A stretch of DNA of 64,000 nt from Nitrosopumilus sp. (GTDB taxonomy: Archaea; Thermoproteota; Nitrososphaeria; Nitrososphaerales; Nitrosopumilaceae), in assembly GCA_965205215.1 (NCBI GenBank), contig OZ242041.1:896001-960000 (forward strand). Reading direction: 5' to 3'. Below the pieces are notes generated by a model. The model was not told the origin of the DNA and did no database searches. It saw only the letters and a program-made list of their open reading frames with translations. Within the stretch, counting starts at the first letter, position 1, and the number at the start of each line of letters is the position of its first letter. The position numbers and the translations under genes were made by a program. Of this stretch, positions 1-63,049 are shown in pieces.

Positions 1-289
1 TAAAAAAGGGCGAAAAGTCAGTAATAAGACTTACTTGTGAACTAGCAGGGATTATATACTTGAGTTAGCTGGGCACGAAAATCCCTGGGATGTAGGAGTG
101 TGGTTTGACCAGTGCAGGCAGAAATGCCGACGAGGCGCCGCCCAACCTTACATTCGGGAATGGTGATCCAATTCTGGATACATTTATGGGCGCTCCCCAA
201 ACAACGGCATCCATGATCTGCACTGGCCAGGACGAAAACGGGCAAAAACCGGAGTGTAACCTTAAGTATAATTCAAACTACCATACACT

Positions 290-739
290 ATGGTATCAAT
301 CAGGGTATGGCACCCTCCCGGACTCAAAGAGGTAATAGAGGAAGCATACCACAGTCTGGATGCATGGACACGTTTTCTTGAAGACATCATACAGGATATA
401 TCAGCAAGGGGTAAGTTATACCACCGGACACGTTCCACGTTTATAGATAAGAAATGGCGCACTGTGCAAACAGAGGAGTTGGACAAATCAAAGCTAAAAC
501 TAAGTGAGGGGGTGAGACACAAGTACATGGACATGACCATAATGAAAGTAGATGCTGACACCCACCTCAACCTGACCCTGATGTGCAGAATCAAGCAACT
601 GGTAGTACGTCTAGAAGAGCAGAGGAAGGGGCTGTTTACGTTTGAGTACATGCTGTACCTCCAAATGCATGAAGCGATGCACGAAAAGGCGTTGGAGATG
701 CTGCGCAGGAAGGCTGAGGAAGAGAGGAAGCGGGACTGA
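290..739 (+). CDS. hypothetical protein (island/virus-like)
   Basis: Tightly packed co-directional run with the next two ORFs; no recognisable motif; start uncertain. Confidence 0.5.
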   Translation: MVSIRVWHPPGLKEVIEEAYHSLDAWTRFLEDIIQDISARGKLYHRTRSTFIDKKWRTVQTEELDKSKLKLSEGVRHKYMDMTIMKVDADTHLNLTLMCRIKQLVVRLEEQRKGLFTFEYMLYLQMHEAMHEKALEMLRRKAEEERKRD

Positions 740-744
740 TTTCC

Positions 745-930
745 ATGAAAAAGACAAGGGCCATAGAGTTCACAGGTGAGAATCGTATTATCGACCTGGA
801 CGAATTCTTGATGCAGCCAAACGTAAGATATGTTGACTTGAAGGTAAGCACTGTGACAATGCATGGGCAACTCATAGAGGGAGTGGTGCTGGTCTACGAA
901 GAGGACGACGGTAGCATTACCGGGGTGTAA
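745..930 (+). CDS. small hypothetical protein
   Basis: ATG 5 bp after the previous stop, 6 bp before the next ORF. Confidence 0.5.
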   Translation: MKKTRAIEFTGENRIIDLDEFLMQPNVRYVDLKVSTVTMHGQLIEGVVLVYEEDDGSITGV

Positions 931-936
931 AACTAG

Positions 937-1416
937 TTGCATTCAGACTTCAGGCTGACGCAAGAACAGATAGAAAAAGCAGATGCCTATGACAGCGAAA
1001 AACATGCCTACGTACACCATTACTTGAAAGACTACTTTAGAGAGAAACTGCCTCTGTTGAACCGACCAAAACATACGGTAGACTGCTTGGTTCATGAGTG
1101 GGAACGTTACATCGTTGAAGATGCATACAGTGCAGGTGGAGTGGGATCTTGTCCCGGAGATTCATTCGCAGACTGGGAAAAAACTTTCTCAATACATAGC
1201 ACAGCCAGATTTGAATGTAAGGACGACTTTCAGATAGGATACTTTTTGGAGTATAGGCACAGGGATCTGATACGCATCTTGGAGCAATTGCATACGATGT
1301 CAGACAAGATGCTATTATGTGGCAAAAAGTTTGATGAAAATAACCAACTGATCATAACTACTGGAGGTATGAAGAATAGTTTTTCTTCAATACTTGGTTA
1401 TTCTTTCTACAAGTAA
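937..1416 (+). CDS. hypothetical protein
   Basis: 159-aa ORF in an operon-like run; no motif recognised. Confidence 0.5.
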   Translation: MHSDFRLTQEQIEKADAYDSEKHAYVHHYLKDYFREKLPLLNRPKHTVDCLVHEWERYIVEDAYSAGGVGSCPGDSFADWEKTFSIHSTARFECKDDFQIGYFLEYRHRDLIRILEQLHTMSDKMLLCGKKFDENNQLIITTGGMKNSFSSILGYSFYK

Positions 1417-1502
1417 TGAGCCTTACTGTGTTTAGTCGCCCTCTGAACGCGTCCAACTACTGTTGACTCACATGGTAAAGTTGCCCGTGTCATGCTCGAA
1501 GT

Positions 1503-2069
1503 TATAGCTGCGATCAAAAGTTCTTGAGTATCGGTGCAGCCCATCTGTCAAAGTATGCGTACATGTCAAGCTTGAGCTTTGATGTCCTAAAGTACTCGGA
1601 CACTGCCCTTCTCATGTCGGCAAACGAAGGGTAATATTCTGACACCAGCAAGCAGTGCTTTGCCTACCACCAGTGCTCCTCGATCATGTTGAGATATGGT
1701 GACTCATGCGAGAGGCAGACGGATCTGACGTCCCCGTTGCGCCTGAGCTTTTTCCTCAGAGCCTTGGAGCGGTGCTGGGGAACCCTGTCCAGAATCACGG
1801 CTATGCCGCCTCTCTTGAAGCGTTCGATCTTACATGGAGACCAGATCGGAACACTGTATCGGCGGGTCTGCCGCATGCCATATGCCTTCGTCGTTTATGC
1901 GCACCGTGTCTACCGCAGCCATCCTGATCTTGACCCGGTGGTCTCTTTTCTTGTATGCTTTCTTCAGATCCCCGGTCTTGCCGTTGACATACCGAGCGTG
2001 ATACGAAGGGATCAAAATTTGTTTCCGTTTGACAAGTTGATCTCTCAAGGACTTTTGCGTCTAGCTATA
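1503..2069 (-). mobile_element. degenerate, internally deleted IS630-family element
   Basis: HTH-like fragment (DLKKAYKKRDHRVKIRMAAV) and DDE_3-like fragment (VILDRVPQH...SPYLNMIEEHW) in different frames; imperfect IRs tatagctgcgatcaaaag / cttttgcgtctagctata with TA ends. Confidence 0.75.
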
Positions 2070-2122
2070 CCTGTCTGTGTCACATCGACAGTATTAATTG
2101 ATCCTACGGCGCACAACACGCA

Positions 2123-4219
2123 TTGAACATCAGGGCGGTAAGGCTGAGAAACTTTCTCTCGTTAGGCGACAATACGCCCGAGATCGAACTGTCTGGACTC
2201 ACCACGATCGTGGGACCCAACGGCTCGGGCAAGACCAGCCTGCTGAGGGCCATTGAGGTGATCGGCAGTCATATGATCCGGCCCAGGCTGCTTCCGGAGG
2301 TATACCATCACAACGGGGATGTTGTGTCCCAGGTCGAGATCGAGATTGATGTGGAGTTCGACTACGATGAGGTACGGGTCATGTCGGATTTTCTGACGTG
2401 CGCGTGCGTCGCCCAAATGGAGTCGAATGATATTCCGTATGGGGATCGAGAAAAACAAGTTCTCAAGAAGATCCTACAGGGTAACGGCATGAAGCATTCT
2501 GCGGATATGTGTAGCAAGATGACCGTAATCCTGCGCACCGAGGGCAGATCAACACTCCCAAAAGTGATCCTCCGGATCGGCAAGGGAGACTGTCGTCTAG
2601 ACGTGAGGAATGGCAGAACCGTAATGGTAGCAGGTATAGAGAAGAGGATGCGCCGTTATGTTGTGGACTTAATCCTTGACAGGGCTTCGGCCGAGGTCTC
2701 CGGCCTGAAATCCCATCTGTCTAAAAGAAACAGGAAACAGCCAGCCGACCTAGATGACTTTGCGGTGGATATATTTAAAATGGTTGAAGACACCGGTGAC
2801 GATGCGTTCACGCTCGGCGTGTTTCGACCAGACATAACTGGGATTATGAAAGAAGTTCACCGGAAGTTCATACGTACGCTGAATTTTTTGGGCGATGGGG
2901 TGGAAGGTATAATCAGCTTCGACACAATAGTTGGGCATCTGTTCTCAAGATCCATAGTAAAAATGTCAGAAATGCAGACGCGGCCTGAAGAAATGTCACT
3001 TACAAGAAACATGCAGGAGACAGACGTTGAGAACATCACGGGTCTGGATCTCGCCCGAACGTTGTTCCTGATGAGTAATAGCGATGATCCCGCCACGATA
3101 CTACGATACAAGAAAGTCATCTTAAAGATGAATGAGATGACGGGGCTGGATGTCAGTATCCAGATAAAGCATACACAAAACAAAAAAGATCATCCGGCAG
3201 ATCCCAAAATTGCCGTCAGGTTCGTGAGAGACACGCTGCCGGTTCCGGCCGAGCTTGTGGCCGGCGGTGACATTGAATTACTGACTATCCTGACCACGTT
3301 GATCGGCCGGAGTGGCAAAATCCTACTCTTGGACGAACCCGCGTCAAGCCTGCATCCGAACAGGCAGAAGGAGATGCGTAAGCTTATGCGCGAGACATCG
3401 GAAGAAGATGGAAATCAGATCGTCCTAGTCACACACTCGCCCTTCCTGACGGATCCATACGGCCGCGAGCCGCTGTGGAGGTTCGCCCCGGATAAAACCG
3501 GGACGAAGGTGGCAGACATCGTAAAGATATTATCCGAACACAGAAACGGAGGGAAGATTATGCAGCATGTAGATGTCCGCTCCATGATGTTTCAGCAAGG
3601 CGTGATCATAGTGGAGGGATTGTCTGACAAGATTCTGATCGAGTCTGCGGATCGACTCATGGCCGAGAGGGAGGGAGGTGGGCCCGGCATCACGAGCGGC
3701 GAATGGATGATACTGGAGGCAGGTGGGAAGGATTCAGTCTTTCCGCTCTCCCGCTTGGCAGAAGAACTGGGCATATCATACATCTCAGTAGTGGATCGTG
3801 ACGCCCTTATGACGCACGACGAAAAGACGAAGATAGGTGACCGTAATGTACAGACCTCGTCTGCCATACGGCACATAAATGAGACACATGGGCTGTCTAA
3901 TGGGGAACGGAAGACCATAATGGATGCAGGGCTCTGCACATCTGCAAACGGTGGCCAAAAATATGACTCAGACGACTTTGATACCCTGAATAAGATCGCC
4001 CGATCTCACAACATACACGTGCTGGATAGTGACATGGAGGGGATTGCCGGGATAAAAAAAAGGAAAAAAGACAGCAAGGTGGAACGCGCACTGAATCTGA
4101 GCTACCAAATGCGCGAAAACAGCTATGTTCCAGAGGGATTGGCGGATCTTGTGCATTCGCTTGGTGAGGTAATCGAGGATACGAGTAGCAGCGGCAACGC
4201 CGAACCGCCGCCATCATAA
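2123..4219 (+). CDS. OLD-family ATP-dependent endonuclease (ABC-ATPase + TOPRIM)
   Basis: Walker A GPNGSGKT, Walker B/D-loop LLLDEPASSLHP, H-loop VTHSP, TOPRIM VEGLSD...GGK...VVDRD. Confidence 0.85.
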   Translation: MNIRAVRLRNFLSLGDNTPEIELSGLTTIVGPNGSGKTSLLRAIEVIGSHMIRPRLLPEVYHHNGDVVSQVEIEIDVEFDYDEVRVMSDFLTCACVAQMESNDIPYGDREKQVLKKILQGNGMKHSADMCSKMTVILRTEGRSTLPKVILRIGKGDCRLDVRNGRTVMVAGIEKRMRRYVVDLILDRASAEVSGLKSHLSKRNRKQPADLDDFAVDIFKMVEDTGDDAFTLGVFRPDITGIMKEVHRKFIRTLNFLGDGVEGIISFDTIVGHLFSRSIVKMSEMQTRPEEMSLTRNMQETDVENITGLDLARTLFLMSNSDDPATILRYKKVILKMNEMTGLDVSIQIKHTQNKKDHPADPKIAVRFVRDTLPVPAELVAGGDIELLTILTTLIGRSGKILLLDEPASSLHPNRQKEMRKLMRETSEEDGNQIVLVTHSPFLTDPYGREPLWRFAPDKTGTKVADIVKILSEHRNGGKIMQHVDVRSMMFQQGVIIVEGLSDKILIESADRLMAEREGGGPGITSGEWMILEAGGKDSVFPLSRLAEELGISYISVVDRDALMTHDEKTKIGDRNVQTSSAIRHINETHGLSNGERKTIMDAGLCTSANGGQKYDSDDFDTLNKIARSHNIHVLDSDMEGIAGIKKRKKDSKVERALNLSYQMRENSYVPEGLADLVHSLGEVIEDTSSSGNAEPPPS

Positions 4220-5113
4220 CTACTGCTGCAGCAGCGCCTAACTTTCCAGAACCTTCTTCATCCTCCCATACCCTTTCCGGTTATTTCGTCGTTGATGTCC
4301 ACTATCTTCAGCACGTCCAGCGGATTTTAGGAGGGCGCAGCGTCCCTGATAATCTTGGCTTCCATCTTTTTCACCTTTGCTTCCTGTAGGGGGTGGGACA
4401 TCCACGTGACCTGAAAGTGGCCGGGGCAAGCGACCCGCCCGCGGGCCGGCAGGCTGCGGGCACATAGGGCGTGATTCCGGATTTCCGGCTCTTGCATTAG
4501 AATCCGGCCAGGCGCCCATGTCCAGAGAACATGCTTTTCGCCAGAAGATTCGCACCCATATCGTGCCTTTTTCCGGTCTCATCTAGGCAGCTTGGACAGG
4601 GCCGGGCAGGGCCGGACGGCCGTTCCAGTCGCGAATCTGGGTGAAAGTTGCGACGTTTAGGGGATCCCGGATACGTGAGGGGGAAGGGCCCCATTTGCCC
4701 CGCTATTCGAATACAGGCGCCGCGTTCTGACAAAAAAGAGATGCAACTGTCTCTCGTCCGCCTGCATGATTCAGGCGTGGTTCGCCTGCCTGCCTGGGAC
4801 CATCATGAAGATTTTTCTTCACAATGATGTCCTAGCACAGACGCCTGTCATCCGAAGCGCGTCTGCAGGGCCGGGACGGGTTTTGCCGACTATTTCAGAC
4901 CCAGATCAACGCAGATCGTGCCTAGACGGGGCTTCTCTCAAGGGTGAGTATGCAGGCCGTTGCGCATTATGTGGATTTACACCCACTGATATGACATGAC
5001 TGCACCGGTGCATGAGCTTCCGGTGTATGTCCTGCTGTAGCGCGATGGAGTGATCCTTGATCTGCTGCCTTACTCATTATCAACCCTATCTGTTGCGTTC
5101 CATCTTGAGCGGC

Positions 5114-5412
5114 CTATCTGGTCTCGGGAGGTTCGGAGGCGTCTATTCCGCCCTCCCCAAACCGTTGCGCCCACATCAAGACCCAGTTCGAACCCTGCAT
5201 GAACGAATCGGCCACGTGCTGAGCGCTCTCTTGGTTGTAATACGCCATGTTCACCGCGGCCATCCTCTTGGCCACTCGCAGATCCTTTTCTTTTCGATAT
5301 GCGCGTTTGACCTCTTCTCGAGACATTTCAGTCATGCGGCGTGTCAAGTAGTATGATCAATAAAAGCTCCGTTTAGAATAAGTGTTTGCTCATGAACTTT
5401 TGCTCTTGACTA
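5114..5412 (-). mobile_element. IS630-family 5' fragment (left end + HTH)
   Basis: ORF EEVKRAYRKEKDLRVAKRMAAV...WAQRFGEGG; upstream 5351-5412 is homologous (reverse complement) to 50681-50742. Confidence 0.7.
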
Positions 5413-5441
5413 TGGCATAATAGTTATTAGTCCAAGATACA

Positions 5442-6590
5442 GTGATTCAAATTATGATAAAAAAACCATCAATCCCACCAATTCTTGATGATATTGGATC
5501 GGCAAATTTATTTAATCAAATTATGACAAATTGGATTGAACCAGAAATCAAAAAAAGAAAAGTATCTAAAACATTAACAGCCAATTTCATATTCAACAAA
5601 TGCCTGATTTTATTTCCTCCAAAAAAATCTCCAATTGTTAAGTTTAATCAAGAATGTCAGTTGCTTGTACTTATGAGCAAGCACAATATTGATACGCTAG
5701 TAAAAAACCAACCAGTTTACATTCATCAAGTTAAAGAAATCATAGATGTGATGCCACCAACCATTAATGATGTACAAGTACCGTTTATTTTTTTAATCAA
5801 AACGGATGAATTTTGGCACATGTTTTTTGACCTTGCTCCAGATACAACCAATAAGTCAACAGATAATTGGATTTTAGGGAAACAGATGGCAAACTCATTA
5901 CAACAATCATTAGAAATAGAAACAATTATTGTTTCTACACGTGCTAATAAGTTATTAAACAGAATAGGTTTGTGGTGTGCCCCTTCCTTGGTTTTGTACC
6001 CGCTCAATAGAATGATAGAGCGCTTATCTGAAAATGACGATGATGGTGCGATCAAAATACTATTGGAACACTGTAACGGTAAATTCCTTGACACCATGAC
6101 TACACATTGGTTTAAAAATACATTTTTTGCAAAAAGAAAAAATCTAATTATAGATTCAGTATGGGCACATGGCCAAAAAAAATACACCCTTGCAATCTAT
6201 ACACTCATACCCCAAATCGAGGGAATAATGACGGATTGGTTAGAACATAATAGACATGTCCCAAAACGCCAAAAAGACAAACTTAAAGAATTTTTTGAAG
6301 CAATGTCGCAAAATACTATAGATACTGTCAACATGATCTCTAAATCAACGCTAAACTTTATAGAAAATTTAGTTTTCGCTGCATTTGAATGGTCCGATGA
6401 AATATCGTACGTGTCTCCAAAGAGACACCCAATAGAGCATGGAAAATATGTGAGGAAGATGTACACTAAGAAAATTTCCATTCTAGTGTTTCTTTTACTT
6501 GATACCATTCATTATTTGATTTCAACTACCGAGCCTGCACCACCTCAGAGATCATCCAAAACATCCTCACAGGGTAAACCTATAGTGTGA
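5442..6590 (+). CDS. AT-rich protein with putative C-terminal HEPN domain
   Basis: LIPQIEG helix plus R-x4-H motif (RHPIEH); much more AT-rich than the host; stop codon lies in the adjacent IS end. Confidence 0.6.
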   Translation: MIQIMIKKPSIPPILDDIGSANLFNQIMTNWIEPEIKKRKVSKTLTANFIFNKCLILFPPKKSPIVKFNQECQLLVLMSKHNIDTLVKNQPVYIHQVKEIIDVMPPTINDVQVPFIFLIKTDEFWHMFFDLAPDTTNKSTDNWILGKQMANSLQQSLEIETIIVSTRANKLLNRIGLWCAPSLVLYPLNRMIERLSENDDDGAIKILLEHCNGKFLDTMTTHWFKNTFFAKRKNLIIDSVWAHGQKKYTLAIYTLIPQIEGIMTDWLEHNRHVPKRQKDKLKEFFEAMSQNTIDTVNMISKSTLNFIENLVFAAFEWSDEISYVSPKRHPIEHGKYVRKMYTKKISILVFLLLDTIHYLISTTEPAPPQRSSKTSSQGKPIV

Positions 6591-7161
6591 CGCAAAAAGG
6601 CGGATTATATACTTGAAACCTCGGAGATTTACCACCGCGGTTGTTGACGAGTCCATATTCGTCAACGGCCCGGGAAGCGGCGTAAAATACTGGTCGCTGA
6701 GGGGAGCCCCCGTCATAACCGCATACAACGGAAGCCACGACAGGATAGTGGCGTACGGCGCGCTCACGACGGACGGCGGGCAGTTTGTCAGGACGTACGG
6801 GGGATCGACAAGGAGACGTTCCTGAAATATCTGAAGGCGCGGGTCGGCCACTTTGGCAGGACCGCGGTAATCGTGGACAATGCGTTGTAGCACAGGGCCA
6901 GAATAGTACGGGAATACCTGGAGGGGGAGGAGCCAAGCGCGAGGGTCATCTGACTTTCCAAGGCAACGCCGGAACTCAGCGTGGTCGAGGAGTACTGGCA
7001 CTAGTCAAAGCGCGATCTACTGGTCAGCGAATATTACTCGACGGTGGTGCATATGCGCCGCGCCTTGCAGGGTATTTTAGAATGGCGCGCCCCAAACTTG
7101 ACGCAATGAAATTCATCAATAGAACGTCTCTGCCCTGCAAAAACCTTTGATCGTCACTATA
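6581..7161 (+). mobile_element. degenerate IS630-family element (DDE remnant)
   Basis: VDESIF / VAYGAL / IVDNA / TPELSVVEEYW-like fragments broken by stops and frameshifts; ends tatagtgtgacgcaaaa and tttgatcgtcactata. Confidence 0.75.
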
Positions 7162-7790
7162 GGTCTGGTTTTCTACCAGCCTCGGTACTGTTGGCTAGGT
7201 TGGGGGAGAAGGAACCCAGCTAGAATGAAAACATCTACTTTCATACAGCTTAAAGCCAGCAGAGGAGTGACGAGGGCTAGAGGGCCTAGAGTAGGACCAC
7301 TAGCGTTCATACGGCTTAAAGCCCGTGGGGAGAAGACAGAGGCAGGACAAAGACCAAGTTTACCACCGATCAGAAGATCCAGATAATGCTAGAGTCAATC
7401 AGAATTGTTATCGATACTACGGAACTGTGCCGCAAGCAGAGTACGTCCGCCAACGTTTCAGACATGGAGACAATAGTTCATGTGTGCAGGCAAGGCCGAT
7501 TGTCACACCTTGGTGGCCTGATCCCGGCTGTAACAGGAGCGGCCTGCCGAGCCCAAAAGAAGGCGAGAATTGCTGTGTCCGGTCGAGGACGGATGCCCTG
7601 AGGCGCCTCCAAACTTCCACGGACATAGGCCTTCCGCGTGGAGCATACGGGGCGTTTGTGTCGCTTAACGGCCGGATGATGGATTGTAACGTTTTAGTCG
7701 ACAAGCAACCCGAGCCTGTTATGCGCCCGCCACTGTGATGGGTCGGGCGATGATGGGTCGAGCGATGACAGAGATTCTGATTGTCGTGCC

Positions 7791-7868
7791 GTGCCGGTGC
7801 CCCGTGCCGGTGCCCCGTGCCGGTGCCCCGTGCCGGTGCCCCGTGCCGGTGCCCCGTGCCGGTGCCCC
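7791..7868 (+). repeat. 13-bp tandem repeat GTGCCGGTGCCCC x6
   Basis: Read directly. Confidence 0.95.
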
Positions 7869-8493
7869 CCGTCCTGGAGCCTGCCAGAGTCGTCAAAGTC
7901 TACAAAGTCCAAGACATTGACGACACCAGTGCCCGGACTGCCCAAAAGCCTGCAAGCTTAAAGGATCCTCGTGCGGGAGCGCGGCGGAGCCGGGCGCCTG
8001 GCTGCGGCGACAAGTTGGATTTCGTTTGCGAATGCTGTTCCAAAACTTCTCGTCCGTTTCAAGAGTCGGGACATGCCGCGGAACGACTGAACGCTGAACC
8101 TGCCGCCGCCGCCCGGACGTGCCTTTCGCGGAAAGTTGGGCCGCCGGGCCCGACGTATATGGGAGGGGGCCGCCGCTAAGCGGCCCCCGGTCGTTTCGGG
8201 ATCGTCGCTCGTGAGGAACGTTCGTTTTTCTATATCTGTGGGTAAATGCGAGTCCCGGCGCCTGCCTGCCCGGCGTGATGTGTCGAGCCGGAGCGTTGTC
8301 CGGATGCATGTTCTGCACGTGTACGGTGCACGTTGTGCATCTGGGATGTGCGGATTATGCATGCCGGAAAACCTCGGAAATACAGATTGTGCACCGTTGC
8401 CGTGTAGATTGTGCACGTGGGGGACGCCTTGCGGCCCGTGCTCGTGCACTTCAAGCATTTTGGGCCTTTTATGCATACGGGAGCCTGCGGCGC

Positions 8494-8817
8494 GTGGAGC
8501 TTGAAGACATCCAGAGAAAGGTCCAGTTCCGGCAGGGATCCTATGCCGTGACCATACCGCTCCGGATAGTCCACGCGCTGGGGATCCGCAGGGATCAGTA
8601 CGTCAGGTTCGCCGTCTCCAAGAACAAGGTCATCATAAAGCCCGTCGAGTCCAACATTACGAAAAGGGATGTGGCCGAGGCCGACCGGGACTCTGCCGCG
8701 CTCGACAGGTACGGGGAGCGGGAGGACGCCGGCTACATGGGGGACCTCGCCGAGGCCCTAGCGCGCAAGCCGGATGATGCGGGATCCGGCCGAATCGAGA
8801 AGCTCAGGATGAAGTGA
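8494..8817 (+). CDS. AbrB/MazE/SpoVT-type DNA-binding protein
   Basis: RKVQFRQGSYAVTIPLRIVHALGIRRDQYVRF...VIIKP swapped-hairpin pattern; GTG start ~25 bp after TTTTATG box. Confidence 0.8.
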   Translation: MELEDIQRKVQFRQGSYAVTIPLRIVHALGIRRDQYVRFAVSKNKVIIKPVESNITKRDVAEADRDSAALDRYGEREDAGYMGDLAEALARKPDDAGSGRIEKLRMK

Positions 8818-8896
8818 CGCCCGAAGATCTCCATTTTCTGCCCCCCGTCCGGCCGCCCCCCGTTTCCTTGTCCGGGGGCTCTCGGATCATACGTGA

Positions 8897-9445
<549 letters not shown>

Positions 9446-9930
9446 TAGTGTGGGAGCGCGACGGACTTGGCGGGTTTACTACAAACCGTGGTTACTGGCC
9501 TCGGAGCGGCGGCGCGTGCCGTACGCCGCCGCGACGTTCTGACTGCGCATGTCTGGGAAACAACCTAGCCATATACCGCGCGGATCGATCTTCGATTTGG
9601 AAAAGCCGCGAACCTGACAGAAGCTGCTACTCCGGGCGCACCGGCCACATGCTGATCGATGCGGCGCGTACGTGCCGTACGGAGGGAAAAGAGTGACGCA
9701 AACGCGGGCGCGCTCTGGGAGTCCGGGTATGCTGTGGTGCAACTGAACGGTGAGCAGGCCGGCGCGCCGCCGGCCGGACGTGCTTTTTGCGGAACAGCCG
9801 GGCCTGGCGGCCCGGCTGTACATGGGAGGGGGCCGCCGCTAGGCGGCCCCCGGTCATCCCGGGGTTGTCGTTGTGGTGACGTGCCAATATGCGAGTGGGA
9901 TGTTCGACACGTGCCGTCAAATCCGTGGCG

Positions 9931-10183
9931 CCCTTTGCGCGCTTTGCGCCCTTGCCAAAAACACCCTTTGCGCGCTTTGCGCCCTTGCCAAAAACACCCT
10001 TTGCGCGCTTTGCGCCCTTGCCAAAAACACCCTTTGCGCGCTTTGCGCCCTTGCCAAAAACACCCTTTGCGCGCTTTGCGCCCTTGCCAAAAACACCCTT
10101 TGCGCGCTTTGCGCGTCCATATCACGCCAAGAGCACCCTTTGCGCGCTTTGGGCGCTTGTCAAGAGCGCGCTTTGCGCGCTTT
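9931..10183 (+). repeat. 33-bp tandem repeat CCCTTTGCGCGCTTTGCGCCCTTGCCAAAAACA x5 plus degenerate copies
   Basis: Read directly; ends just upstream of the AbrB promoter. Confidence 0.95.
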
Positions 10184-10217
10184 TTTCCCCTTAAACATAT
10201 CCAGGGCGTCACTGGTT

Positions 10218-10529
10218 ATGGACAGCGAGAAGACCTTGGAGCGGAGGATCCAGCTGAGGGGGCGCTCCTTTGTACTGACGATCCCGCGGGCCGTGATAAA
10301 AAAGATGGAGATCCGTAACGGGCAGAGCGTAAGATTTCTGGTGGGGGACGGGGAGGTCGTGATCAGACCCATGAGCGCGGGGACGGGTGACGGGACCGCG
10401 GACTCTGAAGGCCCCGACAAGTACGAGAGGGCCATAGAGGAGATGATGACCAAGGACAAATCCGAAAGGTCCGGCGGCCGCGGTGCGGCGTCCGGGAGGA
10501 GCAAGCTGGAAAGGCTCCGGCTCAAATAA
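10218..10529 (+). CDS. AbrB/MazE/SpoVT-type DNA-binding protein
   Basis: RRIQLRGRSFVLTIPRAVIKKMEIRNGQSVRF...VVIRP; TTAAA box ~27 bp upstream. Confidence 0.85.
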   Translation: MDSEKTLERRIQLRGRSFVLTIPRAVIKKMEIRNGQSVRFLVGDGEVVIRPMSAGTGDGTADSEGPDKYERAIEEMMTKDKSERSGGRGAASGRSKLERLRLK

Positions 10530-11000
10530 TCGCAACCCGGACCTCGCGCCCTTTCCCGCCTGACAGCCGCGCAGGCCTGCTACATCCTCGGGCTCTGGGA
10601 GCGCCATTGTCAGCCGTACGCCGCCAAACCGCCCCGCCGCCCTTCATCCTCTGCCTGCATTCCGGATCCTTTTCAGAGTGCCGTGCACGGCATGTCTCCG
10701 ATGGTGAAGGGGGGCTTCCTCGGTTCGCGTGCGGTTCGGTGGATGGACACCTGCTACTGTCGCTTTCAGACTGATCTTTCAAAGCCTCCGTGGGCATCCC
10801 ATCACGCTTCCGCGCCCTTCACCGCCTGCTCTTGGCGTCCTCCGACTTGGTTTCTGCCCGTCTTGCCGGATTCTCGCTGACATTCGCGATTTCTCGCGTC
10901 TGGATTCTTCCCCCTCCCCCCACGCCTACTCCGTGGGCGTGCCAAGGCTGCCCGGGTGATAATCTGCGGCAGGGACAGCAGCAAGGCAACGGGCTACGGC

Positions 11001-11048
11001 AGTTACCCGGTAACAATCATGGTGCACTATGATTGTTACCGGGTAACT
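11001..11048. repeat. 48-bp palindrome with 20-bp perfect arms
   Basis: AGTTACCCGGTAACAATCAT-GGTGCACT-ATGATTGTTACCGGGTAACT. Confidence 0.95.
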
Positions 11049-11319
11049 ACGTCGTAGGTGGTGGGACGTACCCGTGTCGTGGAACGCCTGCCTCCGGTTG
11101 GTCGCTGCAGGCAGCCGCCGCCCTCCGCCCGCTGTTCGTGCGCGACATGCGGGCCATGGAGCGCCGCAGGGATGGAGTGGGGGGGGGGGCAGACCGGCAG
11201 ACACCCCGTTGCACCCAATCGTACGCGCGGTGATCCTGATTATCCTTTGTAGCGCTGCGGGAGTGGCATGATCCGGGTGGTCCATTCTTGCGGATCTGTT
11301 CCGTATTGAACCCTGGCCA

Positions 11320-11361
11320 TACCCGGAAAGAATCATAGAGCTCGTTGATTCTTTCCGGGTA
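11320..11361. repeat. 42-bp palindrome, same family
   Basis: TACCCGGAAAGAATCA-N10-TGATTCTTTCCGGGTA. Confidence 0.9.
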
Positions 11362-11678
11362 CGGACTGCATTGTCGTGCCGGCTGCCTGTATTAATCATC
11401 TACAGGCCTGCCGCATCTGTCACATGCGCATCCTTGCCGCCGTCCGGGCCCAAGGGCGGGGGCCCGCACCGCGGGACGGACGGACGGGTGGAAAAGGGGA
11501 CGGGGTGCCGACAGGGGCGGCCGCGTGGCGTGGGACACCCAGGTGACATGGTTGCAGTCCGGAGGCATGTCCGGAAGACCCGGGCGGCTGCAGCTGGCAG
11601 GCGGCAGAATCCTGACTGGAACCGGGATCAGCGGCAGATGCCATTACTCAGAAACGGGATTCTGTCACGCCGGCGCCG

Positions 11679-13136
11679 TCACGCGGGCGCCGCCGTCTTG
11701 CGCCTGATCAGGAACCTGCCGGCGGACATGTCCCTTACCAGATCCCACCCGTATGCGACCCACGAGAGCAGCTTCTCCTCTCCCGTGATTATCCTTGTCT
11801 GGTATGGCGGCGCCCCGTGCGGGCCGTCCTGCGGCGGATCCGCGTCTTCCCGCACCATGTCTGCGGAGGCAGGCGCCGGTTCGGGGACGCCGTCCTGGGC
11901 CGCCGGTTCCGTACCGGTATTTTCAGTATGCACCATTATGCTGGAAGGATCTATCCCGTACGTCTTGGCCTGCTGCCGCAGCGACTGCAGGAACGCCTCC
12001 CTCCTCTGCCCGGCGTCGTCGCCCGCGTCGCCCGCGCGCAGGAACACCTCGCTCCTTGCAAAGGCGCCCCGCATGTCCTCGATCATCTGCTCGGTCAGCC
12101 TTCCCTTGTTCGTGGTGTACCTGGCCTCCATGTCGCCCGTGTGCCCCATGAAGAACTGCCTGTACGCGTGCGTCATGCACCCGTTGCTCTCGGCCATGAG
12201 GAGCTGCGTATCAAAGTACGCGCGGAGCACGTAGGGCCTCGCCTTGGTGACGCTCCTGATGGCGGCCCTTATCGGGAGTGTCACGGCCTTTGTGGTCATG
12301 AACTCCTGCCCGTCGGCTGCCTGCCCTCTCACCGTCCTCTTCCTGCATGCCAGGGGCGAGTCCGCACTTAACTTCTCACCCGCGGCGGCGCGGCCGCGGA
12401 GGTATCCTAGGAGGTACGAGCACCCCTGTGACGTGAGGAACGTAAAGTACCTGTGGCCCGCCTTGCTTATCTGCGGCCTTATCGTAACCCTCGCCGGCAT
12501 CCTTTCGAGCGAGACTGTACCTCTTCCGTCGACGTCCGCGCGCAGCCCCTCCACATCAGAGACGCGCAGCCCCTCGGTCCCGTCGTGGCTGCCTATCACC
12601 TGCGGCCGCACCCCAGCAAAGGCCATCAGGGACATGCAGGCGCGGGTGCGCGGATCCGCCGCGTTCATGATAGATTCCAACTGCGCCGGGGTGGGCACCT
12701 GCTCGTCCTCCAGCGTCACGGGGATCCTGGCGTTTGCCACCTTTATCTTGCGCCGTATGTCGACATAGTTGTACGTCAGCCACGACTTGAGCGCCTTTAC
12801 GACGTCCTCTATGTATCCCGGCGCGTACTTTTGCGCCTCCATCCACGTCACATAGTCGAGTATCATGTCCTCGGCCCTCATGCTGTCCTCCTTTCCAGTC
12901 GCGACCATCGCGGCGGGGGTTATCCCGGTGTTCTTGTAGAACATGTTGAGCCGCCTTATCCGCGAGTCGGCGGTGAGCTGGCTTGAGCGCGCAAGGTTTG
13001 CGTGCCACCTCGCGACATTCTCATCTGATTCCAATAAACTACTTGCAGATCCATTCAACCTCTTTTTCAAGATCACCAGTTTTGATTTAAGGCCGGATTC
13101 CCGGCTGCCGGGTTGCAATGTGGTCATACTAGTCAT
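11679..13136 (-). CDS. tyrosine recombinase / site-specific integrase
   Basis: Catalytic set R (AGVRP), K (ISKAG), YxxR (YVLR), H (FMGH), Y (ARYT); sits just 3' of tRNA-Lys; start uncertain (13136 or 13127). Confidence 0.9.
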   Translation of the reverse strand: MTSMTTLQPGSRESGLKSKLVILKKRLNGSASSLLESDENVARWHANLARSSQLTADSRIRRLNMFYKNTGITPAAMVATGKEDSMRAEDMILDYVTWMEAQKYAPGYIEDVVKALKSWLTYNYVDIRRKIKVANARIPVTLEDEQVPTPAQLESIMNAADPRTRACMSLMAFAGVRPQVIGSHDGTEGLRVSDVEGLRADVDGRGTVSLERMPARVTIRPQISKAGHRYFTFLTSQGCSYLLGYLRGRAAAGEKLSADSPLACRKRTVRGQAADGQEFMTTKAVTLPIRAAIRSVTKARPYVLRAYFDTQLLMAESNGCMTHAYRQFFMGHTGDMEARYTTNKGRLTEQMIEDMRGAFARSEVFLRAGDAGDDAGQRREAFLQSLRQQAKTYGIDPSSIMVHTENTGTEPAAQDGVPEPAPASADMVREDADPPQDGPHGAPPYQTRIITGEEKLLSWVAYGWDLVRDMSAGRFLIRRKTAAPA

Positions 13137-13286
13137 GGGGCAGGACCTCGCGTATGTGTAGGGGCCCCGTCGTTCCGGACCACAGTGTCGGGCTAACCCA
13201 GTTGCATTCACCCCGCATGAAGATCCCGGCGCCCGTTGCATGGGGCATAACCCCGAAACCGTTTCCTTGAATATGAACAGAAACAA

Positions 13287-13360
13287 TGGGTCTAAAGGGA
13301 TTCGAACCCTTGACAGCCGGATTAAAAGTCCGGAGCGCTACCTGGCTGCGCCATAGACCC
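13287..13360 (-). tRNA. tRNA-Lys(UUU)
   Basis: Acceptor stem GGGTCTA/TAGACCC, anticodon arm CCGGA-CTTTTAA-TCCGG, GGTTCGAATCC T-arm. Confidence 0.95.
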
Positions 13361-13592
13361 ACAGCGTACTGCGCTTCGTGCGTACAATTTAGTCCTTTCA
13401 GGATGCAGATGTGATGGTTCAACCTTCCCCCCTCCCACCAACTGTCTGGCGTGCGGCTACCGAATAAACCACGTACTCTCCCCCCACCCAGTCGCCGCGG
13501 GGGCGGAGCGGAGACGGTGGTGCCATGGAAACTGAGCAGTTAGTCACGCCTGAGCAAACTTTTAATCTAGCCCGTCTTGTAGTCAGATCCGT

Positions 13593-13670
13593 GCCCTTGT
13601 AGTATAGCCAGGTCTAGAATTCGGCCCTGTCACGGCTGAGACGCGTGTTCAAATCCCGCCGAGGGCGCCA
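13593..13670 (+). tRNA. tRNA-Asp(GUC), CCA encoded
   Basis: Anticodon arm CGGCC-CTGTCAC-GGCTG, TTCAAAT T-loop; TTTTAA box upstream. Confidence 0.95.
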
Positions 13671-13773
13671 TCTTACTCTGCATAGCGTCTGCTGCGCTTG
13701 GCGCGCGACATTGATCACTCCCGTATGCTTCCGCCCTTTCAAGTCTTAAAAAAGACGACTGTGTCATGGGTAC

Positions 13774-14217
13774 ATGGTTTCGATCCGGGATGCCGCCCAC
13801 GGCGACGTGCCATTCGTACTCGACCTGCTATACGAGCTTGGACGGCCCAGGCCTGCCGACAAGCAGGAGGAGGACACGTTCGAGAGAGTCATATCCGGAT
13901 ACATCGCGGATGCCGACAAGGGGCTGCTCGTGGCCGAGTCCGACCATGCGGTCGTGGGGCTGGCGTCCATCATGTTTCTTGTCAGGTGCAACCATGCAGG
14001 GCCGGAGATGTACATTCCAGAATTGGTTGTCCGTGCTGACTGCCGCGGGAGGGGTATTGGCAGGGCCCTGGCCGAGGAGTGCATGAGGATTGCCGCCACG
14101 CGAGGATGCCACCGCATCAGACTGGAGTCGGGGAACCGGCGCAAGGACTCGCATGATTTCTACCGGCGCCTGGGATTCGGCCAGCAGGCACTGTCGTTTG
14201 AGTTTCTGGTTTCCTAA
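13774..14217 (+). CDS. GNAT N-acetyltransferase
   Basis: LVVRADCRGRGIGRAL acetyl-CoA motif A; FYRRLGF. Confidence 0.9.
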   Translation: MVSIRDAAHGDVPFVLDLLYELGRPRPADKQEEDTFERVISGYIADADKGLLVAESDHAVVGLASIMFLVRCNHAGPEMYIPELVVRADCRGRGIGRALAEECMRIAATRGCHRIRLESGNRRKDSHDFYRRLGFGQQALSFEFLVS

Positions 14218-45453: not shown

Positions 45454-45527
45454 GGGCCCGTAACTCAGCTTGGTAGAGTAACCGGCTCATAACCGGTGAG
45501 CCATGGGATCGAAGCCCTTCGGGCCCA
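45454..45527 (+). tRNA. tRNA with CAU anticodon, probably tRNA-Ile2
   Basis: GGGCCCG/CGGGCCC stem, ACCGG-CTCATAA-CCGGT arm; GGGCCC acceptor is Ile-like; one T-stem mismatch; marks the left edge of the right island. Confidence 0.85.
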
Positions 45528-45750
45528 TTCTATCCTTTTGCGAGTCAATTTTGACTCGATCTTTGCCGCCTGATTCCATGCCCGTCAACATGCAGGTTCA
45601 GGGGGAAGTGGGATTTAACCCTGCTGGTTGGGATCGAGCTACTTTCGAACTTGAACTCTGCAAGGTACGGATTCTGGTGTTGCAGGCATGATGATTCCAT
45701 GTGCTGGTTGAACCCTTAAGGCATTTATCGAAGATTCCGAGACGTGTGAC

Positions 45751-46563
45751 GTGGTACGGTTCTGCCATCACTATTACGGCAACAACTCGGGATTCTGCCT
45801 GAAGTGCGGGGCCGTGCGCCGTAGCACTTCTGGAGGAGGACCGCGGCGCAGCAGGCGCTGGAAGCCGCGGAGGCGGCGTCATCGCAGGGGCGGCCGCACG
45901 CGCGGCATCATGTCCGGAATCGGCAGGTTCATCATATTTAGTATAATTGCAACCGCCATCCTTTGGGGTATCATATACGGGATTGAATGGTTCTCCGATA
46001 GATACAAGCCGCACATGTCCGGAACGGTGGATAATGCTTCCGGGACAGCCGGTGGGGACGGCATACTGGAATGGCCCGGAGCGCTTGACCCCGTGTTCTA
46101 TACCGCAGAGGAGGAATCAAGGGCCAACCTTGAGTATATCAACGGCCTACGCGCGGAACATGACAGGACTCAGATCGCGTTCGATGCAAGGGCATACGAT
46201 CTTGCGCTTGCCCGCGTCCACGACACTCTGGAATACGACTACCGCGACCACGTTAACCCGCACACCGGAACCTGCCCGTACACCATGAAAGGCGAATACG
46301 GCTTTGCCACGCACGAGCAGGTGGCAGAAAACCTGGCGTGGGTAGAAGGGGTGGGTCACATGGGACCCAACGAGGCGACAGACATCTGGATGGATAGCAC
46401 GGGCCACAGGTTTAACCTGCTGTACCCATCACACACCGGCGGGGCAACCGCGTGCGACGGTGGCGTATGCATATTTCTCGGTGTGAACACCGACCTGTTC
46501 GGGGCCAAGTGCGCCACCGCCGCAGAAGGAGAAGCGTACTGGAACGGGCGCTCCGGTGGATAA
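45751..46563 (+). CDS. membrane-anchored CAP (SCP/PR-1) domain protein
   Basis: N-terminal Cys/His and Arg-rich segment, TM helix, INGLRAEH, AENLA, WMDSTGHRFNLL. Confidence 0.8.
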   Translation: MVRFCHHYYGNNSGFCLKCGAVRRSTSGGGPRRSRRWKPRRRRHRRGGRTRGIMSGIGRFIIFSIIATAILWGIIYGIEWFSDRYKPHMSGTVDNASGTAGGDGILEWPGALDPVFYTAEEESRANLEYINGLRAEHDRTQIAFDARAYDLALARVHDTLEYDYRDHVNPHTGTCPYTMKGEYGFATHEQVAENLAWVEGVGHMGPNEATDIWMDSTGHRFNLLYPSHTGGATACDGGVCIFLGVNTDLFGAKCATAAEGEAYWNGRSGG

Positions 46564-46796
46564 TATGACAGTCTGGCGCAGCACAATGGCCAACGTGTCA
46601 GGCGCGCATCAGGATTTCTAGTTGAAGCCTTATCCGCGACAGTCAAGACTCGCAGTCGGCCACAGTTGAACCCCCGATCTACCTGCATATGTGATGGTGG
46701 CCCAGACGGCAGATTGTTCTGGGTAGGCTCGCGGTCTGATGCAACAATAACGGAGATGGTTTGTGTAGGGATGGCAGTTACTAGAGTTGTACGTGA

Positions 46797-46858
46797 TACT
46801 GGTGCGGATTCATGATATGGATGGTTTGTCGCGTGTATGTCACGAATTCGCACCGGTA
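46797..46858. mobile_element. 62-bp palindromic element (MITE-like, TA ends)
   Basis: TACTGGTGCGGATTCATGATAT...ATGTCACGAATTCGCACCGGTA; near-identical to 49400-49461. Confidence 0.7.
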
Positions 46859-46860
46859 TC

Positions 46861-47319
46861 ATGTCAGGTATGGTTTTTATGACATTGCCTACGTTGTACG
46901 GTACGGCTCCCAACAAAAATAACACCGACTGCACGGATGCGACCGACACATTAAATGAACTAACTAGAAATATTTCCAGTGAACCCAACCATGCACAACG
47001 TGTGGAAACCCCTCATCCACAGAATACGGCGAGACAACGCCGACAACCGACACGCGACGGACGCCCCGATGCAGGCACGCGCGCAACCCCCAAAAAGGAG
47101 CCCGCACCCGGACCAACAACCCCGTATGACATACTTGGTCTGTCCGGTACCGCCACGTGCGCCGAAATCAAGACAAGGTACAGGCAGATGGTAAGGGACC
47201 ACGACTCGTCAAGGGGGCGAATAACCAAGACCGTGCAGGAGAGGGAGATCGACGATGCCGCCATGGCCGCGATCAACAGGGCATACTCAGCATTGAAGAA
47301 AAAGCACGGGTGCAAATAA
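46861..47319 (+). CDS. C-terminal J-domain protein (HPD replaced by HDS)
   Basis: PYDILGL...AEIKTRYRQMVRDHDS...MAAINRAYSAL; TAATG coupling to Hsp70; 5' end uncertain. Confidence 0.7.
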   Translation: MSGMVFMTLPTLYGTAPNKNNTDCTDATDTLNELTRNISSEPNHAQRVETPHPQNTARQRRQPTRDGRPDAGTRATPKKEPAPGPTTPYDILGLSGTATCAEIKTRYRQMVRDHDSSRGRITKTVQEREIDDAAMAAINRAYSALKKKHGCK

Positions 47320-49352: not shown

Positions 49353-49399
49353 CATCATTTTATGCCTGATTCTCGGCACTCCTACCATAACCTACAAGG

Positions 49400-49461
49400 T
49401 ACCAGTGCGGATTCGTGACATGGATGGTTTGTAGCGTGTATGTCACGAATTCGCACCGGTA
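49400..49461. mobile_element. 62-bp palindromic element (MITE-like, TA ends)
   Basis: Inverted repeat extends 49393-49468 (27/29 match, 18-nt centre). Confidence 0.7.
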
Positions 49462-59196: not shown

Positions 59197-59815
59197 TAAC
59201 CGCCTTTGTCACCGAACTTACTGACATTGGTGCCCGTGCCGCGCCCGGTGCTGGTGCCCTTCCCATATACCTGATGCCTGTCAAAGTCGACAAAGTCGAC
59301 AATCTTGTCGGCTTTGTCGACACTCGTGTCTGGAACGCCCAAAGAATCTACAAGTCTAATAACGCCTCGTGCGGAGGTGCGGCGGAACCGGGCGCCTGAA
59401 CGCGGTGACAAGTCGGATTATTCGTTTGCGAATGTTGTTCCAAAACTTCTTGTCCGTTTCAGGAATCGGGGTATGCCGCGGAACGACTGAACGGTGAACC
59501 TGCCAGCGCGCCGCCGGCCGGGCGTGCTTTTCGCGGGACGGTCGGGCCGCCGGGCCCGACTGTATGTGGGAGGGGGCCGCCGCTAGGCGGCCCCCGGTCG
59601 TTTCGGGGTTGCCGCGCGCGGGTTCGTCTTGTCTGTCCAAGGGTAATGCGAGTCCGGCCGCCCGCCGGGCCGTGCGTGGCGCGGCTGTCCGGACGGCGCC
59701 GTATGCATATTGTGCACGTGTCTGGTGCATATTATGCATCCGGAATATGCATATTATGCACGCCGGAATGCCTCGAAATGCATATTATGCATCCCCCGTA
59801 TGCATATTATGCAGT
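59197..59815 (+). other. repeat/hairpin module, copy C (no AbrB gene)
   Basis: Core closely matches copy A; hairpins 59541-59560 and 59572-59595; five TGCATATTRTGCA sites 59704-59813. Confidence 0.8.
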
Positions 59816-61410: not shown

Positions 61411-61847
61411 GTGCTGGTGCCGTCCCTGTGCTGGTGCCGTCCCTGTGCTGGTGCCGTCCCTGTGCTGGTGCCGTCCCTGTGCTGGTGCCGTCCCTGTGCT
61501 GGTGCCGTCCCTGTGCTGGTGCCGTCCCTGTGCTGGTGCCGTCCCTGTGCTGGTGCCGTCCCTGTGCTGGTGCCGTCCCTGTGCTGGTGCCGTCCCTGTG
61601 CTGGTGCCGTCCCTGTGCTGGTGCCGTCCCTGTGCTGGTGCCGTCCCTGTGCTGGTGCCGTCCCTGTGCTGGTGCCGTCCCTGTGCTGGTGCCGTCCCTG
61701 TGCTGGTGCCGTCCCTGTGCTGGTGCCGTCCCTGTGCTGGTGCCGTCCCTGTGCTGGTGCCGTCCCTGTGCTGGTGCCGTCCCTGTGCTGGTGCCGTCCC
61801 TGTGCTGGTGCCGTCCCTGTGCTGGTGCCGTCCCTGTGCTGGTGCCG
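61411..61847 (+). repeat. 17-bp perfect tandem repeat GTGCTGGTGCCGTCCCT x25 plus a partial copy
   Basis: Read directly; no spacers. Confidence 0.97.
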
Positions 61848-62430
61848 GTGTCCCCCCGTGCTTGGCGCCTGCCAGAGTCGTCAAAGTCTGCAAAGTCGAA
61901 GACATTGACGACACCCGTGCCTGGGGCGCCCAGAAAGCCTACAAGCCTAAACGCCTCATGCTGGAGCGCGGCGGACTTGGTGGACCTTATTACAAGCCGT
62001 ACACTGATGTATCGGAGTGGTGACGCGTGTCGTACGCTGCCGCGACGTTCTGACTGCGCATGTCTGGAAGACCATACGCGCAAAGCTAGATCCCGCGCAA
62101 ATCAACCTCCGACAATGAGGAAAGCTGCGGACCTGCCTGAAGTGAAGACGAGCTACCGTTCTGGGCGCAACCTCCTAACCGGACTGATCGACGCGGCGCG
62201 CTCTGGGAGTCGGCGCATGCCGCGGGACGACTGAAGGGTGAGCATGCTGGCGCGCCGTCGGCCTGGTGTGTTTTTCGAGGACAGCCGGGACGTCAGTCCG
62301 GGCTGTCCGACGAGGGGGCCGCCGCCAAGCGGCCCCCGAGTGTGAGTGCCGGGCCGCGCGGGTTGTTGTCTGGGTGACGTGTCAATATGCGAATGGTATA
62401 TTCGACTCGTACCGTCAAGTCATGCCGCAT

Positions 62431-62696
62431 GTTTCACATGCTTTGCCTGTGCGCCAAACGCGCGCTTTACATGCTTTGCCTGTGCGCCAAACGCGCGCTT
62501 TACATGCTTTGCCTGTGCGCCAAACGCGCGCTTTACATGCTTTACCGGTGTTCCGGGCGCATGTTTCACATGCTTTGCCTGTGCGCCAAACGCGCGCTTT
62601 ACATGCTTTGCCATCTTTGCCTGTTTTACCTGTGAGCCGAACGCGTGTTTCACATGCTTTGCCTGTGCGCCGTACACCTGCTTTACATGCTTTGCC
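62431..62696 (+). repeat. 33-bp repeat TTTACATGCTTTGCCTGTGCGCCAAACGCGCGC, ~8 variable copies
   Basis: Read directly; ends at the AbrB promoter. Confidence 0.9.
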
Positions 62697-62734: not shown

Positions 62735-63049
62735 ATGGAAGAGGAAATAATCGAGCGCACGGTACAGCTAAGCCGGGGATCGTTCATCCTAACGATACCA
62801 CAGGCCATAGCAAAAGAGGCGGGGATCCGCAAGGGGCAGGGCGTCAGGTTTCGGGTCAGGGGCGGGGAGATTGTACTCAGCCCCACCGACGTCGCCGGCG
62901 GTGGCGGTGGCGGCGCTGCGGATCCTGCGGGCCCCGACAAGTACGAGAGGGCCATAGAGGAGATGATGGCCAAGAACGAATCCAAAAGGTCCGGCGGCCG
63001 GGGCGCGGCATCCGGGAGAAGCAAGCTGGAAAGGCTGCGGATCAAGTGA
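62735..63049 (+). CDS. AbrB/MazE/SpoVT-type DNA-binding protein
   Basis: RTVQLSRGSFILTIPQAIAKEAGIRKGQGVRF; C-terminal tail nearly identical to 10218-10529; CTTAAG box upstream. Confidence 0.85.
   Translation: MEEEIIERTVQLSRGSFILTIPQAIAKEAGIRKGQGVRFRVRGGEIVLSPTDVAGGGGGGAADPAGPDKYERAIEEMMAKNESKRSGGRGAASGRSKLERLRIK

Follow-up and report, generated by a model that had tools for sequence, protein, structure and literature searches.

A covarying non-coding core in repeated cassettes of archaeal integrative islands, possibly a structured plus-strand RNA

The cassettes and the islands that carry them

The window, by which we mean the whole 64,000-nt stretch of the Nitrosopumilus sp. genome analysed here, carries four modules, A to D, with a common architecture. 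In all module copies a minisatellite is followed by a core of about 160 nt, a conserved box and a repeat array, and often by a gene encoding an AbrB/SpoVT-like protein. The features of the modules and of the adjoining integrase locus are listed below.

7789..7868, plus strand: minisatellite of module A, 6.2 units of 13 nt containing GGTGCC
8052..8205, plus strand: core copy A, scoring 137.5 bits with covariance model R2
8220..8254, plus strand: conserved box of module A, U-rich GTTCGTTTTT and then TAAATGCGAG
8305..8470, plus strand: operator array of module A, TGCA-N5-TGCA-type palindromes in 22-nt phase, ending at the TATA-like TTTTATGCATAC
8494..8817, plus strand: A-type AbrB/SpoVT-like gene, 107 aa, GTG start, apparently leaderless
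9124..9392, plus strand: minisatellites of module B, 8.9 units of 17 nt and then 12/18-nt units
9708..9868, plus strand: core copy B, from alignment and covariance models
about 9868..9897, plus strand: conserved-box counterpart of module B
9931..10183, plus strand: iterons of module B, 7.5 units of 33 nt
10218..10529, plus strand: B-type AbrB/SpoVT-like gene of module B, 103 aa
11679..13286, minus strand: tyrosine-recombinase-like (integrase) gene, 535 aa, convergent with the modules
13286..13361, minus strand: tRNA-Lys(UUU), abutting the integrase start; putative attachment site
59452..59612, plus strand: core copy C, from alignment and covariance models
about 59621..59654, plus strand: conserved-box counterpart of module C
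59704..59813, plus strand: operator array of module C, palindromes of the same type as in module A, no AbrB gene downstream
61411..61847, plus strand: minisatellite of module D, 25.7 units of 17 nt with 100% matches
62196..62354, plus strand: core copy D, from alignment and covariance models
about 62358..62393, plus strand: conserved-box counterpart of module D
62436..62696, plus strand: iterons of module D, 33 nt, unlike those of module B in sequence
62735..63049, plus strand: B-type AbrB/SpoVT-like gene of module D

The minisatellite units share GGTGCC or GGTGAC (a TGGTGMC motif). The conserved box opens with a U-rich GTTCGT tract, continues with TGAGTAAATGCGA and ends in TAAATGCGA, and it is retained across species and in another genus; a conserved ATG within it was rejected as a coding start, the peptides not being conserved. 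The repeat array differs in type between cassettes, consisting either of TGCA-type palindromes in 22-nt phase or of 33-nt iterons. A 9-nt tandem repeat, TTGCCATCT, is present in 10.9 units upstream of module C (58878-58978), and the motif recurs within the iterons of module D (62589-62643). Module C has operators and no AbrB gene; the stretch that follows (window 59820-61000) contains an 88-aa ORF (60464-60730) that gave no Pfam match and that has an out-of-frame continuation, possibly a broken gene. Near-perfect 50-nt palindromes with the core GTTACCCGGTAAC were found at 11001-11050, 11317-11366, 63165-63214 and 63372-63421, two after each module pair of the window, between the AbrB genes and the integrase, and also after modules E and F; these are possibly bidirectional terminators or protein sites. 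In two other genomes (L011 and L016, at about 1040-1150 in each) the core is preceded, at a distance of about 350 nt, by a tRNA-like sequence; its acceptor and T arm can be read by eye, ARAGORN made no call, and the sequence could belong to a partial tRNA or to one with an intron.

The AbrB-like gene, of about 105 aa, starts about 26 nt past a TATA-like TTTTATGC and is therefore probably leaderless. The A-type protein matched MazE_antitoxin (PF04014) at 21.8 bits, below the cut-off of 24.7, and a B-type paralogue at the F locus matched it above the cut-off, at 28.1 bits. The gene lies 280-440 nt downstream of the core in five of the eight copies of this genome, at 7 of 10 loci tested and on a metagenome contig, and it also follows single cores in two genomes of other genera, G175 (two cores) and G250 (one); the core always has the orientation of the AbrB gene. 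A-type and B-type proteins are only about 31-37% identical, whereas their cores are 76-82% identical, so the core is more constrained than the protein encoded behind it.

At nine loci in five genomes and three genera, the cassettes lie 0.85-9.6 kb from an integrase-like gene and are always convergent with it. This gene with its tRNA-Lys and the downstream AbrB gene are the most important part of the context, and neither had figured in the first-pass annotation of the window. The integrase-like genes encode about 480-535 aa, and the proteins are about 50% identical between genera. Searches of the protein against Pfam and PDB sequences gave no match, and an HxxR...GH...Y motif was spotted by eye. 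Its AlphaFold model has a pLDDT of 64.7, with a catalytic stretch of low confidence; when the model was used in Foldseek, all 13 matches at E<=1e-3 were tyrosine recombinases (among them XerA, Cre and the integron integrase VchIntIA), with TM scores of only 0.17-0.45. More than 1000 homologues were found, two of them named 'site-specific integrase' by their source. The family occurs in 25 of 80 genomes of the archaeal family, a tally that includes the unpublished genome G248, used for no other result, and the genome of the window has about 10 paralogues. A second pair of integrase and tRNA-Lys lies at 702-704 kb of the same genome, and the arrangement is also present in G175.

The 3' end of tRNA-Lys is repeated exactly over 17 nt at genome position 864982-864998, 44 kb upstream, and the tRNA end and this repeat together outline a putative integrated island, deduced from sequence, with defence cargo. 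Between them lie low-GC restriction-modification genes, GmrSD, an OLD-family nuclease and other genes. Integrated elements of Thaumarchaeota have been described in which a tyrosine-recombinase gene lies beside a tRNA gene and the att repeats are short, with a median of 17 bp (PMC6563490). The cryptic integrated elements described there resemble the present island in having the recombinase beside the tRNA and short att repeats, here of 17 nt; in the main text of that paper AbrB, SpoVT, tandem repeats and a replication origin go unmentioned, and 'iteron' occurs in its reference list alone. From the neighbourhood of integrase, tRNA-Lys and defence genes we take the modules to be part of the backbone of an integrative defence island.

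Two stretches of the window, 1-8000 and 45600-59200, have a GC content of 0.40-0.57 as against 0.60 and resemble defence/cargo islands upstream of the modules. Their genes include an OLD-family ATPase-TOPRIM (2123-4219), an Hsp70-like gene (47157-49352) and a double AAA ATPase (53189-55582), in addition to three genes of the 2'-5' RNA-ligase superfamily and one for a CAP-domain protein. A 47-nt stretch over the 3' end and flank of a tRNA-Met (45514-45560) recurs with 85% identity 40 kb downstream, at genome position 981472-981518; the two copies may be a further pair of attachment sites, with modules C and D and two integrase genes between them.

Hairpins, core copies and covariation

Each core of the window contains two adjacent hairpins. 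Direct reading confirmed their sequences and coordinates, as the first-pass annotation had given them, at all four sites, where hairpin 2 is a 9-bp GC stem, GGGGGCCGC and GCGGCCCCC, around a 6-nt loop.

8135..8154, plus strand: hairpin 1 of copy A, GTTGGGCC/GGCCCGAC, with one T.G
8165..8188, plus strand: hairpin 2 of copy A, loop CGCTAA
9794..9819, plus strand: hairpin 1 of copy B, 11 bp, ACAGCCGGGCC/GGCCCGGCTGT
9828..9851, plus strand: hairpin 2 of copy B, loop CGCTAG
59541..59560, plus strand: hairpin 1 of copy C, GTCGGGCC/GGCCCGAC
59572..59595, plus strand: hairpin 2 of copy C, loop CGCTAG
62279..62308, plus strand: hairpin 1 of copy D, 13 positions with one G.G mismatch
62314..62337, plus strand: hairpin 2 of copy D, loop CGCCAA

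The two hairpins are 5-11 nt apart, and a third, H0, which is degenerate in copy A, sits upstream of hairpin 1. The four hairpin 1 stems of the window differ and all of them pair; that hairpin 1 changes in sequence while keeping its pairing, as had been claimed from these four sites, holds in the wider copy set as well, in which at least five stem versions occur (GTCGGGCC, GCCGGGCC, GTCGGGCT, GGGCCGGC or CTGGGAC) with loops of 3-10 nt.

Alignments show that the hairpins belong to a single core and that the four sites of the window are paralogous copies of it, the other three being 73-86% identical to copy A by BLAST. The recurrence at four sites thus reflects common descent as homologous copies of one repeat, and the four occurrences are not independent. 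The genome (2,098,239 bp, 60.3% GC), whose genes for the replication factor C large subunit and a Nuo/Fpo-type complex show the host to be an archaeon, contains eight copies, of which seven were detected by BLAST and the eighth by a covariance model. Among the seven, 95% of cells were paired, and two pairs showed double changes, a number reached by 273 of 500 shuffles; the covariation that had been argued from the four window copies is therefore not significant at the level of this genome. Because the signal was not above chance, we built covariance models (R1-R3) and searched relatives. Model R1 matched five of the 150 other genomes searched within the genus. In a further 150 genomes from the family, models R2 and R3 matched two, G175 with 12 copies and G250 with three, which belong to different genera. 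With one copy on a metagenome contig, the covariance models gave 32 copies in all, from eight genomes and that contig, in three genera of one family. Protein-based searches returned nine loci from genome contigs, eight of them from the same four genomes and one from an alphaproteobacterial MAG, and one new contig from metagenomes; among 27 integrase-flank loci of other genera, only that of G250 had a core.

The larger alignment, which the first-pass annotation had proposed as a check, gave significant covariation. In the alignment of 32 copies, which was fitted to the model structure and so favours pairing and G.U, 93.7% of cells were paired and 16 of 24 pairs showed changes on both sides, a count reached in 4 of 500 shuffles. 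The same alignment contained 95 double-change cells, which none of the 500 shuffles reached, and its covariation score was 0.366 as against 0.154 +/- 0.011 in shuffles that ignore the relatedness of the copies, again with 0 of 500 reaching it; in controls in which the 3' partner was displaced by 1-3 columns the score was at most 0.112. Since the alignment had been fitted to the structure, hairpin 2 was recounted on a structure-blind MAFFT alignment, where five of its nine pairs had double changes, in 25 cells (0 of 500 shuffles). The double changes fall mostly between a few clades, which leaves few independent events. Hairpin 1, hairpin 2 and H0 are kept by compensatory change, which argues that the pairing itself is under selection.

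Hairpin 2 had been described as having an invariant stem. This is true of all eight copies of the genome and of the same-genus copies that have hairpin 2, but not of the two other genera: the stem is GGGCCGC/GCGGCCC in the genus of the window and GGGCTCC/GGAGCCC and GGGCCCC/GGGGCCC in the genera of G175 and G250, and the loop is unchanged. The 9+6+9 layout is found in 30 of the 31 copies with hairpin 2, the loop matches CGYYAR in 28 of them, and in 24 it forms a GYYA tetraloop with C-G closure. Conservation is higher in the spacer than in the arms, and five variants of the spacer (CGCTAA, CGCTAG, CGCCAA, CGCCAG and CGTCAG) occur within one genome. The outer pairs vary through G.U intermediates within G175. 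An unpaired TGTGG linker before hairpin 2 persists in all three genera. A T5 tract precedes hairpin 1 in copies from the genus of the window and is missing in G175 and G250, and a U-rich tract lies downstream of hairpin 2 in most copies. One locus of another genome (L014, G156) retains hairpin 1 and the linker and lacks hairpin 2 altogether, possibly as a natural deletion variant.

Could these palindromes belong to a young repeat family without function, their symmetry maintained by repair templated on the hairpin or by gene conversion between copies? The similarity of copies within the genome (73-86%) and the non-significant covariation there would fit such an origin, yet conservation of the core extends over three genera in which the operator arrays and the AbrB proteins (about 31-37% identity) diverge, and unpaired motifs are conserved too; we regard this explanation as highly improbable. 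Dispersed palindromic repeats of the REP/MITE type were rejected, as the eight copies always lie within the same module and the other pattern matches are not palindromes; across the genome no hairpin palindrome in proper form was found outside the modules. A viral origin was likewise rejected: pattern scans of viral contigs gave six loci, all of them chance GC hairpins, and one fuller viral match (L047) is a bacterial-phage-like coding region.

The core is non-coding and falls in none of the Rfam families. No frame is open in all copies, and the copy lengths differ by non-multiples of three. The Rfam search that the first-pass annotation had suggested was run, and at the gathering score it found four tRNAs in the whole window and nothing on the core; at E<=1, the five module loci gave just sub-threshold matches to plant and animal miRNAs and to MicL. 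A literature search by titles and the beginnings of abstracts found no description of such an element.

Strand signal and DNA-level alternatives

The first-pass annotation had taken a U-G pair in hairpin 1 of copy A as a sign that the plus strand is the one that folds. Over all copies hairpin 1 has four G.U and four A.C cells, so this pair carries no weight. In the 32 copies, on the structure-fitted alignment that favours G.U, the ratio of G.U to A.C cells on the plus strand was 39:9 (composition-expected G.U share 0.57, p 4e-4), made up of 24:5 in H0, 4:4 in hairpin 1 and 11:0 in hairpin 2, and after collapsing per pair and genome it was 25:8 (p 0.02). The preference for the plus strand is thus modest and comes from H0 and hairpin 2. 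Raw folding energy put the plus strand ahead by a mean of 12 kcal/mol in 16 of 17 copies, but this advantage is due to G/T richness and was rejected as strand evidence, since it vanishes against dinucleotide shuffles (z-scores of -2.41 for the plus strand and -2.30 for the minus strand). The earlier proposal of selection on a folded plus strand is supported in part: compensatory change bears out the pairing, and the G.U bias over all copies leans modestly to the plus strand, with hairpin 1 unbiased and the z-scores equal on both strands. A long-range closing helix proposed by RNAalifold from seven copies was also rejected (RNAduplex on 32 copies, mean z -0.02, 3 of 32 below -2). Without such a helix the supposed RNA is a mere string of local hairpins, which is equally possible for a DNA site.

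A single-strand DNA site, at which plus-strand hairpins and iterons would serve the replication or transfer of an excised circle (as an initiation site, an origin or something like an origin of transfer, recognised on unwinding of the DNA), is an unlikely identity for the core, though one that several features suit. Covarying hairpins, variable loop length and an excess of G.T over A.C fit folded DNA as well as RNA; iteron arrays adjoin every core in an integrative-island setting; and in G175 the iterons are A/T-rich and lie in arrays of 3-6 gene-less cassettes directly beside the integrase. Plasmid origins combine iterons with strand-specific hairpins, and the cassettes share with iteron-type and transfer origins the iterons, the GC-rich hairpins, a small autoregulated DNA-binding protein gene and a mobile-element backbone. 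They differ in that several cassettes occur per island, and a non-exhaustive scan of ORFs revealed no initiator, Rep, primase, relaxase or HUH gene within the modules or next to them. The modules of this genome are GC-rich, with no obvious unwinding region, and no circular or excised form was seen. Contigs of two DNA runs over 6500-13800 were short; two joints were found, unrelated to the cores, and none at the hairpins, a result that counts neither way.

The ORB boxes of the host are absent from the window, where no match to the genome's own oriC boxes was found at up to three mismatches, and an archaeal ORB/Orc1 origin was therefore rejected. The chromosomal origin lies at genome position 418000-419200 (L091), beside cdc6, and has four ORB-like boxes of the GGAGTGGAAATGAAGGGGT type; a very A/T-rich stretch of 90 nt is also present there, and a small AbrB-like ORF adjoins it.

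The layout of hairpin 2 raises a further alternative, that it acts in duplex DNA as the core site of a tyrosine recombinase, or that both palindromes bind a dimeric regulator, so that the changes in the stems are half-sites tracking a co-evolving protein. The dif/XerA, loxP and att cores have inverted arms around a short spacer; hairpin 2, whose 9-bp inverted arms flank a conserved and asymmetric spacer of 6 bp, falls within the pattern of inverted arms around 6-8 bp, and the 9+6+9 arrangement with its spacer better conserved than the arms is what such a site would show. The cores are near, and always convergent with, a recombinase-like gene (nine loci, five genomes, three genera) whose product has a predicted fold closest to XerA, Cre and IntI; the roughly 50% identity of the recombinases between genera leaves room for a shift in specificity, and the stem differences of hairpin 2 lie mostly between genera. 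Such core sites are found at the junctions of mobile segments and share a spacer. The hairpin 2 sites, in contrast, are internal to the islands, in multiple copies and direct arrays, with five spacer variants in one genome, and the putative junction is the tRNA-Lys 17-nt repeat. The passage of the outer arms through G.U in G175 also speaks against a duplex site, and no recombination product was seen. A dimer of fixed geometry could not accommodate hairpin 1 loops that range from 3 to 10 nt, the restriction of proper palindromes to the modules leaves no regulon, and single cores exist far from any recombinase gene (copy G, and those at 324, 756 and 1134 kb of G175). On balance we find a duplex site rather improbable.

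Integron attC sites provide a related comparison. They are long palindromes, imperfect and with extrahelical bases, that contain a conserved cleavage box, and every cassette brings a different gene. The present modules resemble them in forming arrays beside a tyrosine-recombinase-like gene and in having sites set by pairing with a hint of strand specificity, but the stems here are short and near-perfect, the recombinase is convergent with the array, and the cassettes carry AbrB genes or none, and identity with attC was rejected.

A predicted plus-strand RNA and what it may mean

The case for a folded single strand rests on the pairing, the conserved loops and linkers, and the fixed direction. 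Our preferred, still tentative reading is that the core is an undescribed structured plus-strand RNA of the integrative islands; we rank it first because of the G.U bias, the C-G-closed GYYA-type loop of hairpin 2 (24 of 31 copies) and the U-rich tract behind that hairpin. The core would be transcribed on the plus strand, in the direction of the AbrB gene, and the predicted small structured RNA would end at the U-rich tract 25-30 nt past hairpin 2. Such an RNA may work with the adjacent regulator array in controlling the island. Against an RNA, a search ahead of the core yielded no convincing conserved promoter, and nothing like the AAA-N-TTTAAW box that is clear in the tRNA upstream regions of this genome. 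Also counted against an RNA are the equal z-scores of the strands, the failure of the long-range helix, the unbiased hairpin 1, the small number of independent events and the recombinase-core layout (9+6+9) of hairpin 2 near a recombinase gene.

Among known systems, the plasmid and mobile-element countertranscript or copy-control RNAs, which are small, multi-hairpin and antisense to the leader of a rep mRNA, offer a likeness in form. Like them, the core measures about 100-160 nt, comprises two or three GC-rich stem-loops, finishes in a U-rich stretch and occupies a mobile-element control region beside a small autoregulated DNA-binding protein gene. Unlike them, it shares the strand of a gene that lies about 300 nt downstream and apparently has a leaderless promoter to itself; the core also has no identified target or Rfam match, and its RNA is a predicted one. 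A ToxIN-like locus, in which tandem RNA repeats, a terminator hairpin and a toxin gene form a single unit, was rejected: the downstream gene is AbrB/MazE-like rather than a nuclease toxin, and has its own TATA-like box at about -26.

The sequences flanking the hairpins could alternatively be taken as transcription punctuation, a terminator or insulator block that halts read-through from the cargo into the regulator cassette, with the RNA itself having no function. The T5 before hairpin 1 in the genus of the window, the U-rich tract that most copies have behind hairpin 2 and the placement of the block between cargo and regulator gene would suit this role. G175 and G250 lack the T tract ahead of hairpin 1, however, and archaeal termination needs only oligo-T, which counts against a need for hairpins; the conserved loop, the TGTGG linker and three separately maintained hairpins would be left unexplained, and we consider punctuation very doubtful.

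A more speculative extension, to which we give little credence, is an integron-like or satellite-like archaeal platform, in which the integrase would recognise the folded plus-strand hairpins by structure and conserved loop, as DNA or via RNA, and so let gene-less and AbrB-bearing cassettes multiply, shuffle or be captured. Such a platform, if real, would explain the G175 arrays of 3-6 cassettes and the adjacent defence cargo.

To our knowledge, almost no regulatory RNAs or cis-acting mobile-DNA elements have been described in ammonia-oxidising archaea. The compact core described here keeps its pairing across three genera, is linked with a small regulator family and with a widespread, uncharacterised integrase family, and lies at the edge of defence islands. 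If the core is an RNA, it would represent a new archaeal RNA family and give a handle on the control of these islands; were it a DNA site, it would serve to locate the origin or the recombination machinery of thaumarchaeal integrative elements. In either case, the covariance model is a marker with which such islands can be found in symbiont genomes.
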